64,000 nt of DNA from Microgenomates group bacterium GW2011_GWC1_46_15 (GCA_001002285.1 LCLX01000001.1:192302-256301), one strand, 5' to 3'; shown: positions 24,560 to 62,006, counted from the stretch's first letter. Notes: generated by a model not told the origin, from the letters alone. Numbers and translations: made by a program.

Positions 24560-24937
24560 TTATTTTTTAGATTTTGGTGAGGGTTTTGCAAACATGCGTA
24601 AAAATTTCTTACTCATTGAACTTGCCCACTTATCCACTTTCATCTTTTGAAGTGCAAGTTTCATTCCTTTTGCATTTGTTTTTTCTGCAACAGTAGCAAT
24701 GGTGGCGCTGGAAACGTGAAGAATTTTCCCAATCTCTGTGTAGTTTTTTCCATCATTTAAAAACGCTGCTATAGCAAGTCTTTTTGTAAGCATATCCATT
24801 TCTCCGCGGCCCAAAAAATCCTCAAGAAAAACGCGCGACTCTTTCACTGTAGAAAGATCGGCGATCACTTGAAAAAAAGAGCGGTGAAGCTCCTCTTCAA
24901 ACACACTCTGCAGTTTTTGCGAAGACATTTTTGGCAT
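24560..24937 (-). CDS. TrpR-like YerC/YecD-family DNA-binding protein
   Basis: About 125 aa with HTH YTEIGKILHVSSATIATV, characteristic of the Trp-repressor-like YerC family; sits directly upstream of metG. Confidence 0.55.
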   Translation of the reverse strand: MPKMSSQKLQSVFEEELHRSFFQVIADLSTVKESRVFLEDFLGRGEMDMLTKRLAIAAFLNDGKNYTEIGKILHVSSATIATVAEKTNAKGMKLALQKMKVDKWASSMSKKFLRMFAKPSPKSKK

Positions 24938-56476: not shown

Positions 56477-58351
56477 GTGGGCATCATGGCTTCCCAAATT
56501 GAAGAGATAAAATCGGCGGTTGACATTGTGCAGGTGATTGGCGAGCGCGTGAATCTCACGAAGGCGGGAAAAAACTTTAAAGGCCTGTGTCCGTTTCATT
56601 CAGAGAAAACGCCATCGTTTTTTGCAACGCTAGAAATTCAACGGTATAAATGTTTTGGATGTGGCAAATCGGGTGATGTGTTAACGTTTGTGCAGGAGTA
56701 TGACTCGCTCACGTTTGTTGAAGCGTTGGAGATGTTGGCAAAACGCGCCGGCATTATGTTAGAAAGGCAGGCGTTTAGTCCCGAAGATGCCCACCGCAAA
56801 CGGTTGTATGAAGTTCTCCACCTCGCGCGTGAGTACTTTCATTATGTTTTAACGGAACACAAACTGGGTGAACCCGCCCGTAAGTACTTGAAAACCCGCG
56901 GTATTACGAGTGAAACGATTAAAACATTTGGACTTGGATACGCGCCGAACTCATGGGATGGGTTGTACAACTATTTAGTAAAGAAAAAAAAGTATGATGT
57001 GCGTGAGCTTGAAGATGTTGGATTGGTGATCCGCAAAACAGGCACGCGAGGCACAAGTAGTGGTATCGGTGCGGGTGATGTGTATGATCGTTTCCGTGGC
57101 CGTATCATGTTTCCATTGACCGATGCTCAAGGAAAAGTGGTTGGTTTTTCCGGCCGTGTGCTTGATCCGGAAATTAAAGAGGCGAAGTACATCAACTCGC
57201 CGGAAACGCAGTTGTATCACAAAAGCGAGTTATTGTTTGGCTACTCGGTACTCAAAAACTTTATCCGCAAAGAAGAGGAAGTGCTGGTTGTTGAAGGAGA
57301 ACTGGACGCGTTGTCCTCGTACCAGGCCGGTGCGCAGAACGTTGTGGCGATTAAAGGCTCTGCGCTCACCGAAAAACAGGTGCGGTTGTTGTCGCGTTCG
57401 GTGAAACGCGTGATTTTGGCGCTGGATGCAGACTCAGCTGGTGTTGAAGCAACCAAGCGCGCGATTGAAACTGCCCGCCCGTTTGAGTTAAGCCTACGCG
57501 TGCTTCCTCTCGTTGGCGGCAAGGATCCCGACGTGATCGCGCGCGAACAACCAAAAATCTGGCGCGACATGGTCAAAAAAACCGCCTCGGTATATGCATT
57601 TCTCATTGACTCTTCGTTTACCGCGCATGGTGATGAAGGTAAAACTGGTGAAGGCAAACGGCTTATTACTAACGAAGTCATTCCCGTGCTTGCTTCGATT
57701 CAAAACTCGGTGGAACAGGCGCATTTTCTTGAGTACGCGGCCGAACATTTAGACGTCAAACAAGAGGCATTGGAAAAAGAGTTGGAAAAGTATTTGCAGA
57801 AGCGCAAATTCTCCCCCGGTTTTACGCCTCGGAATACACCACCGCAGGAAAACCAAGACATACGAAAAAACCCAACGGTATTGTTCACCAGCCGCACGTC
57901 TCTAGAGCGGTATTTGTGCTCTTTACTCCTGCGTTTGGAGCCGGCCGACGTGCAAAAATATGTGGTACAACTCCTTGATATTGGTGTGCAGGAGCCCGTG
58001 ATCGCCAAACTCATCAAACACCTCGCGCGGTTTATAGAAACACAGCCACTCGACCTCACCAAATTTGCCCAGTCTTTGCCAGAGGAACTCCGGCAGCCGT
58101 TATCCGACTTGTATCTCGAGTTTGAAGATGATGATAGCAATGTCATTAAGGAGTTTGAAAAGGCCCGCCGGCGCCACGCGGTTTTGGCGCTTAAGGAGCG
58201 GATGCAGGAAATCGCGCACACAATGGCGGAACTTGAACAAAAAACACTGCAAACCGCTGAAGAAGAACAGACATTCAAAAGCTTGCAGGATGAGTTGGTG
58301 CTCGTTGGCGAAAAAATCCAAGTTTTTGAGGGGGAAAACGGGCCATTATAA
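56477..58351 (+). CDS. dnaG: DNA primase
   Basis: CHC2 zinc finger KGLCPFHSEKTPSFFATL...YKCFGCGKSGD; Toprim VVEGELDALS; followed by rpoD. Confidence 0.85.
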   Translation: MGIMASQIEEIKSAVDIVQVIGERVNLTKAGKNFKGLCPFHSEKTPSFFATLEIQRYKCFGCGKSGDVLTFVQEYDSLTFVEALEMLAKRAGIMLERQAFSPEDAHRKRLYEVLHLAREYFHYVLTEHKLGEPARKYLKTRGITSETIKTFGLGYAPNSWDGLYNYLVKKKKYDVRELEDVGLVIRKTGTRGTSSGIGAGDVYDRFRGRIMFPLTDAQGKVVGFSGRVLDPEIKEAKYINSPETQLYHKSELLFGYSVLKNFIRKEEEVLVVEGELDALSSYQAGAQNVVAIKGSALTEKQVRLLSRSVKRVILALDADSAGVEATKRAIETARPFELSLRVLPLVGGKDPDVIAREQPKIWRDMVKKTASVYAFLIDSSFTAHGDEGKTGEGKRLITNEVIPVLASIQNSVEQAHFLEYAAEHLDVKQEALEKELEKYLQKRKFSPGFTPRNTPPQENQDIRKNPTVLFTSRTSLERYLCSLLLRLEPADVQKYVVQLLDIGVQEPVIAKLIKHLARFIETQPLDLTKFAQSLPEELRQPLSDLYLEFEDDDSNVIKEFEKARRRHAVLALKERMQEIAHTMAELEQKTLQTAEEEQTFKSLQDELVLVGEKIQVFEGENGPL

Positions 58352-58377
58352 ATGCCATTATAGGTGCCATTATAAAT
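58342..58377. repeat. three tandem 12-bp repeats GCCATTATA(AA/GG)T
   Basis: GCCATTATAAAT GCCATTATAGGT GCCATTATAAAT; the first copy encodes the dnaG C-terminus and stop; abuts the rpoD -35. Confidence 0.7.
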
Positions 58378-58380
58378 ATC

Positions 58381-58409
58381 TTGCGCATTTCCCCTTTCTC
58401 TGGTACACT
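58381..58409 (+). promoter_or_regulatory. rpoD promoter TTGCGC-N14-TGGTACACT (extended -10)
   Basis: Shares TCTGGTACACTG with the aspS promoter. Confidence 0.55.
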
Positions 58410-58453
58410 GCGCGCGGTATCATGAGGATACGTCGTTGTGTTTGGTCGTGCCT

Positions 58454-59803
58454 ATGCCCAAGAAATTACCCAAGAAAACTATGCCAAAAAAAACCGTTTC
58501 CCACAAAAAATCCGGGGTTCGAACGAAGTCCGGGTTTAAAAATACACCAAAAACTAAAAACATACAATATAGTGTCTCTAAACACGCTGCTTTTAAACAC
58601 GGTGCGTCGAAGCAGGGTGTTTCCAAGCAAAATACTCCTAAGCAAGGTGCGTTTAAACAGTCAACCTCTCCGCGGCCAGCTCCAGTAACACTCTCTGCCC
58701 GCAAAGAAGCCCAAGCGAGTGCGCTCAAACAACGCATCGCCGATCTTCTCAAACGCGCGAAAAACCAAGGATTTATCACACAGGAAGAAATTCTCGGTGT
58801 ATTTGCATATCCCGAAGATCACCTCAAGGAGTTGGATGGGTTATACGGCACCATGTTTACCGCGGGTGTAGACGTGTTCGAGACCGTTGAAGAAGAGCAG
58901 ATGAAGGAAGATTCTGGCGTCATTTCTGACCTGGAGAAAGAACTCGAAGTATTGTCTACACTTGATGACCATTCCGTTGCCGACCCCGTCCGCATGTACT
59001 TGAAAGAAATCGGCCGCATTCCCCTGTTGACGCGCGAAGAAGAAATTGACTTGGCGCAGAGAAATGACGGCGGCGATCCGGTTGCAAAACAGAAGCTCAT
59101 TAATGCAAACCTGCGTCTAGTGGTTTCAATCGCGAAAAAATACATTGGCCGTGGCATGACATTTTTGGACCTCATTCAAGAGGGTAACAAAGGATTAATC
59201 CGCGCGGTTGAAAAATATGACTGGACGAAAGGGTTTAAGTTTTCCACATACGCAACGTGGTGGATCCGCCAAGCCATTACCCGCGCGATTGCCGATCAGG
59301 CCCGCACCATCCGTATTCCCGTTCACATGGTTGAAACGATCAATAAGTTGATGCGCGTCTCCCGCAAGCTTATGCAGGACTTGGGCCGCGAGCCAACCGC
59401 CGAGGAAATCGCGGACGCGATGGAAGGCATTGACCCCGACCGCGTGCGCGAGATTTTAAAGATTTCACAAAAAACCACGTCGTTGGAAACACCGATTGGA
59501 GACGATGACGATTCCTATTTGGGTGACTTTATTGCCGATGATACGCAGACCTCGCCGTACGATGCCACGAGCAAGCGGTTGTTGAAAGAAAACATTGAAG
59601 AAGTATTGAGTGCGTTGACCGACCGTGAGGCCAAGGTCTTGAAAATGCGGTTTGGACTAAACGGCGCTCGCCCGATGACGTTGGAAGAAGTTGGTCAGAA
59701 GTTCGGCGTCACGCGCGAACGTATCCGGCAGATTGAGGCGAAGGCGCTGCGAAAGCTCAAGCACCCGAGCAAGCGGAAAATGCTCCAGGATTACTTGGAG
59801 TAG
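58454..59803 (+). CDS. rpoD: RNA polymerase sigma factor RpoD (sigma-70) with an unusual Lys-rich N-terminal extension
   Basis: Regions 1.2-2.4 ([27 protein letters not shown]; [18 protein letters not shown]...[17 protein letters not shown]) and region 4 ([15 protein letters not shown]). Start at the ATG of MPKKLPKK (the track starts at a TTG 18 nt upstream). Confidence 0.9.
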
Positions 59804-59804
59804 A

Positions 59805-60092
59805 ATGACGATCCATAATAATGAGCGTACAAAACTTGCAAAACAATATCTCGCTCAATACTTTCCGAATATGGATAAAAACACCAGAAAAATTGTTGTC
59901 GAACTTGCTGTTCATCACTTTACTGGTAACTATTCACCAGTGAAAGTAGAACAAGATGATAGAGGAGCAATAGGGTCAGGAACAACATTCGAAGAATTTG
60001 TTATTTACTTGGGAGAACTTCGTGGAAACGAAGAACCCATGGGTGTTGATCATGCCTGGCTTGGATCTATTATTGCAAAAACAGGTATGTAA
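59805..60092 (+). CDS. hypothetical protein
   Basis: 96-aa ORF starting 1 nt after the rpoD stop (MTIHNNERTKLAKQYL...). Confidence 0.35.
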   Translation: MTIHNNERTKLAKQYLAQYFPNMDKNTRKIVVELAVHHFTGNYSPVKVEQDDRGAIGSGTTFEEFVIYLGELRGNEEPMGVDHAWLGSIIAKTGM

Positions 60093-60116
60093 GTTCTTTT
60101 CCCTGTGCTAAAATAC

Positions 60117-60899
60117 TCATATTCTCTTGCGTAGAATATAAAATATCGTTTTCCACCGTTTAAACGTTGTGTGTAGCGCAGATAGAAGTGTTGCATATGA
60201 CCGTGCCGAAGTATGAACAATGATTGAAGAATCAAAACCAATAGTCCCGAACTGAGAGAGTCTACTTGCAAGTTCAAAATCTTCAAGATTGATTCCGAGG
60301 AATAATGTATTGCGAAACCCTTCTGCCTTTTTTAATGCAGATGAACGTACCGCGCAATTAAATCCCTGAAGTGATGTAAATCCGAACATGTGATTCTTTA
60401 TTTTTTCCCAGAACTCAAAAAGATGCATATGATTCATCCAAAGAACGAGGGTTGGAGCGTCAAATAGAATAAGTCTTCCAGTTACGGCAATATCAGAGGA
60501 TGTTGAAAAATGTTCTGAAATTCGTTCGATCCAAGTTGATGTTGGTTGCGAATCAGCATCGGTCATAGCGATAATAGAAGATTGTGCACATGAACACCCT
60601 TTTTGTCTGGCAAGCCCGGTTCCAGAGTTCATTTCCTGAAGAATGTGAAATGAAACATTTCTTTCTTTAAATTTTTTCACATATGAACGAGCAACATCCA
60701 ATGATGAATCGGTAGATCCATTGTCAACAACGATCACTTCCGTGGGGAGTACTGTTTGCTGAAGGAGTGACTCAAGACAGTCTGGAAGCAGGGAAGCCTC
60801 ATTCTTCATGGGGATGACCACACTGATGGGTAAAATTTTCATCTGTAGAAAGTATACCAAGTATGCTACAGTACATCTTCTTTGTTGTAGTATGGGCAA
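60117..60899 (-). CDS. glycosyltransferase family 2
   Basis: ISVVIPMKNEASLLPDCLESLLQQT, VVDNGSTDSS, DADS - the classic GT2 (GT-A) N-terminal motifs. Confidence 0.7.
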   Translation of the reverse strand: MPILQQRRCTVAYLVYFLQMKILPISVVIPMKNEASLLPDCLESLLQQTVLPTEVIVVDNGSTDSSLDVARSYVKKFKERNVSFHILQEMNSGTGLARQKGCSCAQSSIIAMTDADSQPTSTWIERISEHFSTSSDIAVTGRLILFDAPTLVLWMNHMHLFEFWEKIKNHMFGFTSLQGFNCAVRSSALKKAEGFRNTLFLGINLEDFELASRLSQFGTIGFDSSIIVHTSARSYATLLSALHTTFKRWKTIFYILRKRI

Positions 60900-60935
60900 C
60901 TATGAGTTGATTGTTCCTATGTTCAGGACTATAAT

Positions 60936-61619
60936 TTGAACATGGGTTACTTTGGAAATTTGGAAAAGAAAATACAGGCGCAGCAATTAAGAAAAAAGGG
61001 CTTGTCCTACTCTGAAATCAAAAAACGCATTAATGTTCCTAAAAGCACTTTAAGTAATTGGTGTCGAGACATTGCACTTACCGAAGGACAAGCTCTTCGA
61101 CTTTTTAAGAATAAACTTACAGGTTCAGCTCGCGGACGAATAATAGGAGCAAAACGCCAACAGGCAAAAAGATTACGACAAATTTCCGATATGTTAACTG
61201 AGGGGAGGAAAGAAGTAGGGTCTTTGTCGACAAGAGACGTATTCATTGCGGGAATTTGTTTGTACTCTGCTGAGGGAACAAAAAGGGACAAGGCGTGTGG
61301 TTTTGCCAACAGCGATCCTTTGTTGATAAAATTTATGGCAAATTGGTTTAGAAAATTTTGTCATGTTTCGGAAGAAAAATTTAGGGGAGCAATTTGGATT
61401 CATTCGGGTTCTGATTATCGGAAGGCAACACACTATTGGTCTAAAGTTGCTGGTATACCAACATCACAATTTCTCAAACCATATATCGTAGCAAATAAAA
61501 CAGAGAGTCGAAAAATTCGGAAAAATATCCATCCATATGGAGTATTTTCCATCAGATTTTCTGATGCAAAAATTCATAGAAAAATAATGGGATGGATCTC
61601 TGGAATACTCGATTCCTAG
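60936..61619 (+). CDS. HTH-domain protein, possible free-standing LAGLIDADG-type homing endonuclease
   Basis: N-terminal HTH (LSYSEIKKRINVPKSTLSNWCRD). FIAGICLYSAEGTK resembles a LAGLIDADG motif followed by a beta-rich region; weak, by eye. Ends 34 nt before the intron-containing tRNA-Asn. Confidence 0.35.
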   Translation: MNMGYFGNLEKKIQAQQLRKKGLSYSEIKKRINVPKSTLSNWCRDIALTEGQALRLFKNKLTGSARGRIIGAKRQQAKRLRQISDMLTEGRKEVGSLSTRDVFIAGICLYSAEGTKRDKACGFANSDPLLIKFMANWFRKFCHVSEEKFRGAIWIHSGSDYRKATHYWSKVAGIPTSQFLKPYIVANKTESRKIRKNIHPYGVFSIRFSDAKIHRKIMGWISGILDS

Positions 61620-61652
61620 CTGATATAATACCCCTGTTCTTTTATAGATCGA

Positions 61653-61982
61653 TCCCCGGTAGCTCAGCCTGGTAGAGCGGGAAGCTGTAGCGTACTGCAG
61701 CCCTTTTTAGCGATGAAAAGGGAAACACAGGGTGAATTCAGGGAAGCCTTCGCTAGTGGTGAAAATCAATAGCATGGTAATCCTGAGCCAACTCCGATGA
61801 ATGGAATAAACGTAGTCGGAAGGGTGCAGAGACTAGGAGTGAGGATCCAACCAATACTCTCCAGAAGCGCCCTGCTCCAACATTATTTCGGTAGCGTTGG
61901 ATGAAGAGATAGTCCACACTTTATGGAAACATAAAGAGCATGTGTAACTTCAAGGTCCAAGGTTCAAATCCTTGCCGGGGAG
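61653..61982 (+). tRNA. tRNA-Asn: tRNA-Asn (anticodon GUU) interrupted by a group I intron
   Basis: Exon 1 61653-61688 (TCCCCGG acceptor, GCTC-AGCCTGGTA-GAGC D-arm, GGAAG, CUGU). Exon 2 61945-61982 (UAA, CTTCA, T-arm CAAGG-TTCAAAT-CCTTG, CCGGGGA, discriminator G). The spliced anticodon loop CUGUUAA equals the canonical tRNA-Asn loop. Confidence 0.75.
61689..61944 (+). ncRNA. group I self-splicing intron (~256 nt) in the tRNA-Asn anticodon loop
   Basis: P1: exon GCUGU pairs with the internal guide GCAGC (61697-61701), with U.G at the splice site. AAAGGGAAAC (P4-like). GGGUGCAGAGACUAGGAG (R element, P7 5' strand). GAAGAGAUAGUCCACAC (S element, P7 3' strand). The intron ends with G before exon 2. 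Closely resembles cyanobacterial tRNA-Leu intron core sequences. Confidence 0.75.
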
Positions 61983-62006
61983 CATAGTATAGTTAATATA
62001 ACCAAT

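Follow-up and report, generated by a model that had tools for sequence, protein, structure and literature searches.

A basic, predicted disordered tail ahead of an acidic region 1.1 in the primary sigma factor of a Microgenomates bacterium

The rpoD product of Microgenomates group bacterium GW2011_GWC1_46_15 is a complete canonical group-1 sigma factor, in which an acidic region 1.1 is followed by regions 1.2, 2, 3 and 4. Ahead of region 1.1 it carries a basic, Lys-rich tail, which, judging from sequence and structural models, is an addition upstream of this domain and not a substitute for it. The gene was analysed within a window of 64,000 nt, by which we mean the whole stretch of DNA under study, and its features are collected in Table 1.

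Table 1. Features of rpoD and its surroundings in the window
Feature	Position	Strand	Basis or details
rpoD, primary (group 1) sigma factor, 449 aa	58454..59803	+	ORF list, Pfam, homologues
Alternative rpoD starts	TTG 58436 (455 aa); ATG 58481 (codon 10)	+	
Highly conserved rpoD upstream region	58374..58453	+	near-invariant compared with L002; promoter-like elements by inspection
Basic Lys-rich predicted-disordered tail, residues 1-79	58454..58690	+	charge, AlphaFold2, dN/dS, orphan status
Indel-prone tail segment	58475..58553	+	imperfect 16-nt direct repeats 58475-58490 and 58538-58553, 63 nt apart
Six imperfect pentapeptide / 15-nt units [S/F/P]-K-[H/Q]-x-x, residues 42-71	58577..58666	+	autocorrelation, repeat search
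Sigma region 1.1, acidic helical domain, residues 80-154 (Pfam 92-154)	58691..58915	+	PF03979, charge, AlphaFold2, phmmer
Acidic linker between regions 1.1 and 1.2, residues 155-176, net -5	58916..58981	+	charge; low AlphaFold2 pLDDT
Conserved core of rpoD	58982..59764	+	Pfam; dN/dS 0.01 compared with L002
Region 1.2, Pfam residues 177-203	58982-59062	+	Pfam
Region 2, Pfam residues 215-285	59096-59308	+	Pfam
Region 3, Pfam residues 294-370	59333-59563	+	Pfam
Region 4, Pfam residues 384-437	59603-59764	+	Pfam
1.8-kb segment between rpoD and intron-containing tRNA	59804-61620		absent from L002, where the tRNA region directly follows rpoD; includes a 95-aa ORF with no Pfam match
GT2 glycosyltransferase (within the 1.8-kb segment)	60117-60899	-	
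227-aa ORF	60936-61619		weak N-terminal HTH match
tRNA-Thr(UGU) with 256-nt group I intron	61653-61983	+	exon 1 61653-61686; intron 61687-61942; exon 2 61943-61983

The sigma factor, its region 1.1 and its tail

All five sigma-70 modules (regions 1.1, 1.2, 2, 3 and 4) exceeded their Pfam cut-offs in the rpoD product, and the matches to PF00140, PF04542, PF04539 and PF04545, which cover regions 1.2 to 4 in order, did so by far. The nearest database proteins are annotated RpoD from Microgenomates/Patescibacteria MAGs, with RpoD of Microgenomates group bacterium GW2011_GWB1_45_17 (contig L001) as the top match. Moreover, dnaG (56477-58351) lies 100 nt upstream of rpoD in the classical dnaG-rpoD arrangement. 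The domains, the homologues and this linkage thus bear out the original prediction that the gene encodes a sigma-70, more precisely a primary sigma-70-type factor; it is the presence of region 1.1 that sets group 1 sigma factors apart from groups 2-4. In a blastn alignment over 7.3 kb, L001 and the window show 3 mismatches and one indel. Because of this near-identity, we take the two sequences to represent one species-level population of a candidate-phyla-radiation bacterium.

Region 1.1 was recognised by several approaches. PF03979 (Sigma70_r1_1) matched residues 92-154 with 29.9 bits against a cut-off of 22.5, and these residues carry a net charge of -7 with a pI of 4.45, while region 1.1 together with the linker (residues 86-176) has a net charge of -12. 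The same residues 92-154 were aligned by phmmer to region 1.1 of C. difficile SigA (7l7b_F). AlphaFold2 predicted a helix-strand-helix-helix-strand domain, with a pLDDT of about 82 in the full-length model (range 81-90 over models) and, when the domain was modelled alone, 78 overall and about 88-90 in the core. When this model was compared with the PDB by Foldseek, the sigma 1.1 structures 9a58_A, 8to1_L, 5mww and 6psq_L came out on top, at E-values of 0.4-6.7 that are non-significant for such a small domain; the top five of the 15 matches include B. subtilis SigA/sigma1.1 (9a58_A, 5mww) and E. coli sigma70 with an ordered region 1.1, likewise with non-significant E-values. The model superimposes on B. 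subtilis sigma1.1 (5mww) with an rmsd of 2.1 A over 54 columns, a match whose Foldseek E-value is also non-significant. Like the canonical region 1.1 of E. coli sigma70 and of B. subtilis and T. maritima SigA, residues 80-154 are thus acidic, helical in the model and recognised by PF03979. Unlike in the canonical proteins, about 80 basic residues precede the domain here, while 50 of the 119 nearest homologues have at most 10 residues there.

Region 1.1 is known for its DNA-mimic or autoinhibitory behaviour, and the original prediction had placed the basic segment "instead of" an acidic region 1.1, so that the autoinhibitory acidic module would be absent. Beyond the N-terminal position of the segment, nothing speaks for this reading. 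It is contradicted by the Pfam match, the net charge of -7, the alignment with SigA and the AlphaFold2 fold, which together place an acidic domain, modelled as folded, at residues 80-154; we therefore consider a replacement of region 1.1 extremely improbable. Because an acidic region 1.1, folded in the model, follows residues 1-79, which are predicted to be disordered, the tail is best described as an extra extension. Hence the predicted layout runs from a disordered basic tail (+21) through an acidic, folded region 1.1 and its acidic linker (together -12) to regions 1.2 to 4.

The tail itself is strongly basic. Residues 1-85 contain 19 Lys, 3 Arg and 3 His with no Asp and a single Glu, which gives a net charge of +21 and a pI of 11.5; the tail is also rich in Ser and Thr, and overall K/Q/S/T/P/G-rich. 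AlphaFold2 gave residues 1-79 a pLDDT of 30-42 and assigned them no secondary structure. The amino-acid sequence showed significant autocorrelation at lag 5 (z=4.3, p=0.0002) and lag 10 (z=4.6), and the nucleotide sequence at lag 15 (z=4.8 against codon shuffles), with a mean pairwise nucleotide identity of 59% among the six 15-nt units. The repeat search found a family of 22-nt repeats spaced 15 and 45 nt apart, and a duplication of MPKK at a distance of 27 nt, while Tandem Repeats Finder at a minimum score of 30 did not report the array. The pentapeptide repeats are real but weak and degenerate.

These results agree with the original prediction in its description of the first ~80 residues as Lys-rich, basic and imperfectly repetitive (net +21, pentapeptide periodicity), and the imperfect DNA tandem repeats that it placed at 58560-58670 lie close to the interval found here. 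The disorder and structure prediction that it proposed as a check indicates a disordered tail and a folded region 1.1. A scan of the window's ORFs of 100 aa or longer found no long Lys-rich stretch in a convincing gene other than the rpoD tail; Lys-rich tails are no proteome-wide habit visible in the window. Apart from this tail, the convincing genes yielded a single Lys-rich segment, the short C-terminal stretch of a 125-aa Trp-repressor-family ORF (24560-24937, minus strand; PF01371, E=1.5e-10).

Translation start and flanking DNA

Five in-frame start codons were found at the 5' end of rpoD, namely TTG 58436, TTG 58442, GTG 58448, ATG 58454 and ATG 58481. From codon 11 to codon 126, no ATG, GTG or TTG occurs in frame, and the next start, TTG at codon 127, is already inside the conserved region 1.1 domain. 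Given this gap, translation of region 1.1 entails translation of the tail, of which at least 76 residues are then necessarily made. The reading frame thus places the tail within the predicted translated protein.

Alternatively, the start might have been mis-called, with the basic segment serving as a 5' leader and translation initiating downstream. The starts of related genes are indeed called inconsistently, as three homologues of 434, 385 and 368 aa (P0011, P0012 and P0016) have nested N-termini and the gene of the sister lineage L002 was called from the second ATG; a second frame is also open across the region (ORF 58065-58688), and ATG 58454 has no Shine-Dalgarno motif directly ahead. However, this last point says little, because a Shine-Dalgarno-like motif was found upstream of only 6 of the 37 ORFs of at least 250 aa in the whole window. 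The lack of in-frame starts in codons 11-126 argues against a downstream start, as do the two tail indels, both in frame with lengths that are multiples of 3 (63 nt and 30 nt), and a tail dN/dS below 1. Initiation near DPVRMY (residue 177), the alternative raised along with the original prediction, fails on the same lack of start codons, and would moreover remove the conserved region 1.1. A mis-called start is thus very unlikely.

The exact start is uncertain within narrow limits. A GAGGA motif at 58424-58428 precedes TTG 58436 with a 7-nt spacer, and the survey of the 37 long ORFs did not decide between this codon and ATG 58454. The choice shifts the protein by at most six residues in front, or by nine at codon 10. 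ATG 58454 and its reading frame are kept in L001-L004. It was also observed that many start codons in the window stand directly 3' of TAnnnT-like -10 boxes, for example tgatatact followed by GTG at dnaG; together with the scarcity of Shine-Dalgarno motifs, this hints that mRNAs of this genome may lack a leader or have a very short one. For annotation, the case is a reminder that different gene callers place the rpoD start of this group differently.

The DNA around the start is far more conserved than the tail. Between 58374 and 58477, which covers the upstream region and the first 8 codons, about 2 substitutions separate the window from L002, while the core has a dS of 0.64 and the tail is heavily diverged; this suggests strong constraint on the rpoD promoter, leader or initiation region. 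By eye, a predicted promoter-like TTGCGC (58381-58386), a 17-nt spacer and TGgTACACT (58401-58409) can be recognised here; a consensus promoter/terminator scan upstream of rpoD called nothing, and folding of the 5' leader (58412-58500) gave no structure beyond chance (z = +1.4). Tandem Repeats Finder reported a 12-nt tandem repeat, GCCATTATAAAT x3 with 83% matches, at 58342-58377, which runs across the dnaG stop codon into the dnaG-rpoD spacer. This repeat is only partly conserved in L002.

Downstream of rpoD, the intron of the tRNA-Thr(UGU) gene (Rfam RF00028, 89.7 bits) is inserted between anticodon-loop positions 33 and 34, with the 5' exon ending in U and the intron in G. After the exons were joined at manually set junctions, ARAGORN recognised a clean 75-nt tRNA, while the native interrupted sequence was missed by the same program. 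This interrupted tRNA region is 98% identical to L002 and its flanks are 84-88% identical. The segment 59804-61620, which is absent from L002, may be an insertion adjoining the tRNA.

Evolution and distribution of the tail

Compared with L002, the tail has a dN/dS of 0.44 (Sd 16.5, Nd 27.5; synonymous excess p about 0.02-0.04), against 0.01 at a dS of 0.64 for the rpoD core. Such a value would correspond to only weak constraint on the tail. Length changes were found in both L001 and L002. L001, near-identical elsewhere, lacks exactly 63 nt (21 codons) at 58475-58553, exactly between the 16-nt direct repeats, which looks like the signature of slippage or short-repeat recombination, or possibly of assembly collapse. 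L002 has a 30-nt in-frame deletion, which removes ten codons of the pentapeptide array and equals two 5-aa units in length; despite many substitutions its tail is still basic, with +21 from the same ATG. From these comparisons, the tail evolves fast, both through substitutions and through slippage or recombination at short direct repeats that leaves the frame intact, and it keeps its composition but not its sequence.

When the tail alone was searched by phmmer against 1.84 billion representative proteins, one true relative (P0121) was found, and it belongs to the same clade. The second match, a QDVIK-repeat protein, was rejected as compositional only. Against PDB sequences, the tail alone gave 0 matches at E<=10. 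Judged by these searches, this particular tail is confined to its species-level clade, and the original prediction of a lineage-specific extension holds.

The residues ahead of region 1.1 were then counted from predicted starts in the best 119 homologues of the rpoD product. Region 1.1 was found in 118 of the 120 listed homologues. Among the best 119, at most 10 residues precede it in 50, 11-19 in 19 and at least 20 in 50, so that about 58% have fewer than 20. A strongly basic extension, defined as at least 20 residues with a net charge of at least +8, is present in 17 of these 119 (14%), such as MARAKKKPVTRRKPVAKKTVKK... and AKKVAPKKVAPKQSAPKK.... Among the 50 homologues with a predicted extension of 20 aa or longer, the extension is neutral or acidic in 13.

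Because predicted starts are unreliable, the tails were re-derived from DNA for 80 GTDB loci, independently of gene callers. Most Patescibacteria representatives among them have at most 12 residues ahead of region 1.1. In two loci, L020 and L021, no start codon lies nearer than 60 residues upstream, which forces tails of 60 aa with net charges of +15 and +19. In a third, L012 (Patescibacteria UBA924, DBDU01000016.1), an open frame of about 135 residues precedes region 1.1; it has an AKKP / H1-like, K/A/P-rich composition (MPKPTPKKTPSKKAAKAAVKKPVVKK...). As an ATG is also present just ahead of region 1.1 in L012, the annotated start may hide a much longer basic tail. In L005, an open K/Q/P-rich frame reaches about 70 or more residues, according to which start is taken. 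The loci of lower identity (57-61%, mostly with Bacillota or Actinomycetota labels) were all free of forced tails, and in all of them region 1.1 starts within about 4-17 residues of the N-terminus.

Non-homologous basic tails are, as read from these homologues and loci, recurrent and sporadic in Patescibacteria RpoD. The comparison with RpoD of relatives, with which the original prediction was to be checked, supports a lineage-specific tail. In the literature, we found nothing specific on a lysine-rich or basic N-terminal sigma extension or on sigma factors in Patescibacteria, and no account of such a tail in that phylum; spirochete and SPO1 papers had no bearing on it.

Precedents and candidate roles

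Basic low-complexity N-terminal segments are already known in actinobacterial primary sigma factors, and the tail described here is a further instance, a modest curiosity. According to the PDB SEQRES record, residues 1-103 of Mtb SigA (5uh5_F) have a net charge of +19 and residues 104-226 of -47. In M. smegmatis, the N-terminal segment sigmaA_N is disordered by CD and NMR, with its first 60 residues positively charged; it contributes to the binding of MoaB2, a protein with a negatively charged surface, mainly through residues 61-160, the basic first 60 being not essential (PMC11656743). In mycobacteria, the disorder extends to the acidic part of sigmaA_N, and a folded region 1.1 is not recognised (PMC11656743). 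For Mtb SigA, promoter binding, in vitro transcription and complementation were unchanged in delta42, delta92 and delta132, and only the deletion that takes away the acidic residues 132-179 fails (PMC10011835).

The tail resembles sigmaA_N in three respects. Each is a lineage-specific disordered N-terminal segment of an essential group-1 sigma factor (disordered by prediction here), each places a basic block and then an acidic block before region 1.2 (+19/-47 in Mtb, +21/-12 here), and each consists of low-complexity sequence rich in K, A, P, T and S. However, the rpoD product here keeps a Pfam-positive region 1.1, folded in the model, with the basic block ahead of it. No sequence homology to the tail was detectable in a PDB set that includes full-length Mtb, M. 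smegmatis and Streptomyces sigma factors, and the composition is A/K/P/T-rich there but K/Q/S/T/P/G-rich with [S/F/P]K[H/Q]xx units here. By analogy, the rpoD product would thus work like the sigmaA_N type without being a member of it.

A second comparison is offered by S. coelicolor HrdB (8k60_F), in whose PDB SEQRES record a region-1.1-like segment (net -4) is followed by AKKTTAKK repeats (residues 73-162, net +19) and then by an acidic stretch (net -17); HrdB region 1.1 is disordered in cryo-EM maps (AfsR paper). Both are primary sigma factors with a Lys-rich repetitive basic segment beside an acidic stretch, upstream of region 1.2. The basic repeats follow the region-1.1-like segment in HrdB but precede region 1.1 here, and the repeat unit and sequence are unrelated.

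The polycationic repeats of the tail (19 Lys in 85 residues) also recall H1-like Lys-Ala-Pro tails. The C-terminus of mycobacterial HupB, the C-terminal lysine repeats of actinobacterial TopA and chlamydial Hc1 are polycationic, disordered and repetitive, and bind DNA non-specifically. The Patescibacteria RpoD tails of L012, P0103, P0104 and P0071 look just like them, while the tail here contains less Ala and Pro but more Gln, Ser, Thr and Gly, and has no homology to them.

On these grounds, we slightly favour a role of the tail as a modulatory, non-essential, electrostatically acting disordered polycation, which would contact nucleic acid, mask region 1.1, or both. Being flexible and carrying +21, it could make weak, sequence-independent contacts with DNA (or RNA) that would hold sigma or the holoenzyme on nucleic acid; judged from charge, DNA or RNA binding by the tail is plausible. 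Its charge would equally allow it to fold back on the adjacent acidic block (region 1.1 plus linker, net -12), and this fold-back would tune the strength of region 1.1 as a DNA mimic or autoinhibitor. Any role would be modulatory, because of the weak constraint, the variation in presence and absence and the mycobacterial deletion data. Function as such is weighed against by the short tails of most relatives, the absence of 21 residues from L001, the dispensable basic block of Mtb SigA and the dN/dS of 0.44.

The same points lend some weight to a neutral origin, in which a low-complexity segment with no selected function grows and shrinks through replication slippage and recombination of short repeats within an A-rich 5' coding region, and is tolerated because the N-terminus of region 1.1 is solvent-exposed. 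The 63-nt indel coincides exactly with the interval between the 16-nt direct repeats, and the genome concerned, L001, has otherwise 3 mismatches over 7.3 kb; L002 lacks ten of the codons that make up the pentapeptide array, and the tail dN/dS stands at 0.44 against 0.01 for the core. Further, the tail is absent from most relatives, its sequence is an orphan, the basic block of Mtb SigA can be deleted (PMC10011835), and A-rich DNA biases toward Lys codons. However, the tail dN/dS is still below 1 (p about 0.02-0.04), and strong basicity is kept across diverged tails and arises repeatedly in non-homologous Patescibacteria RpoD tails. As 13 of the 50 extensions are neutral or acidic, drift does not obviously impose basicity. 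A neutral by-product is hence a serious candidate, though the less probable of the two.

A quite improbable third reading sees the tail as a docking or modification site, for an anti-sigma-like sequestering protein, phosphorylation or the control of proteolysis, and not as a nucleic-acid contact. The binding of disordered mycobacterial sigmaA_N to MoaB2, with its negatively charged surface, offers a model for docking, although the residues needed there were 61-160 and the basic first 60 were not essential (PMC11656743). Modification would suit the Ser and Thr content of the tail, and phosphorylation in the disordered N-terminal region modulates SigA activity (PMC10011835). On the other hand, binding motifs are usually conserved islands, while the tail has no conservation outside its species-level clade, and 21 of its residues can be lost, as in L001.

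To return to the favoured electrostatic role, it could also be extended to the phylum. Polycationic sigma tails would then have been gained time and again, independently, in Patescibacteria, and would serve as H1-like DNA tethers or as counter-ions of region 1.1 that alter promoter search or open-complex formation; the tail described here would be a selected functional module and not a tolerated low-complexity expansion. We consider this extension rather unlikely. If true, such tails would be a solution specific to this lineage, whose members have few transcription factors.

For now, the finding serves mainly as a correction: region 1.1 is present, the start is sound, and the tails are sporadic, fast-evolving and not without precedent. 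If the tail is functional, a charged disordered appendage would tune region 1.1 and the non-specific DNA affinity of the housekeeping sigma factor in an uncultured, genome-reduced lineage, and would provide a second phylum-level example beside the poorly understood actinobacterial sigmaA_N.
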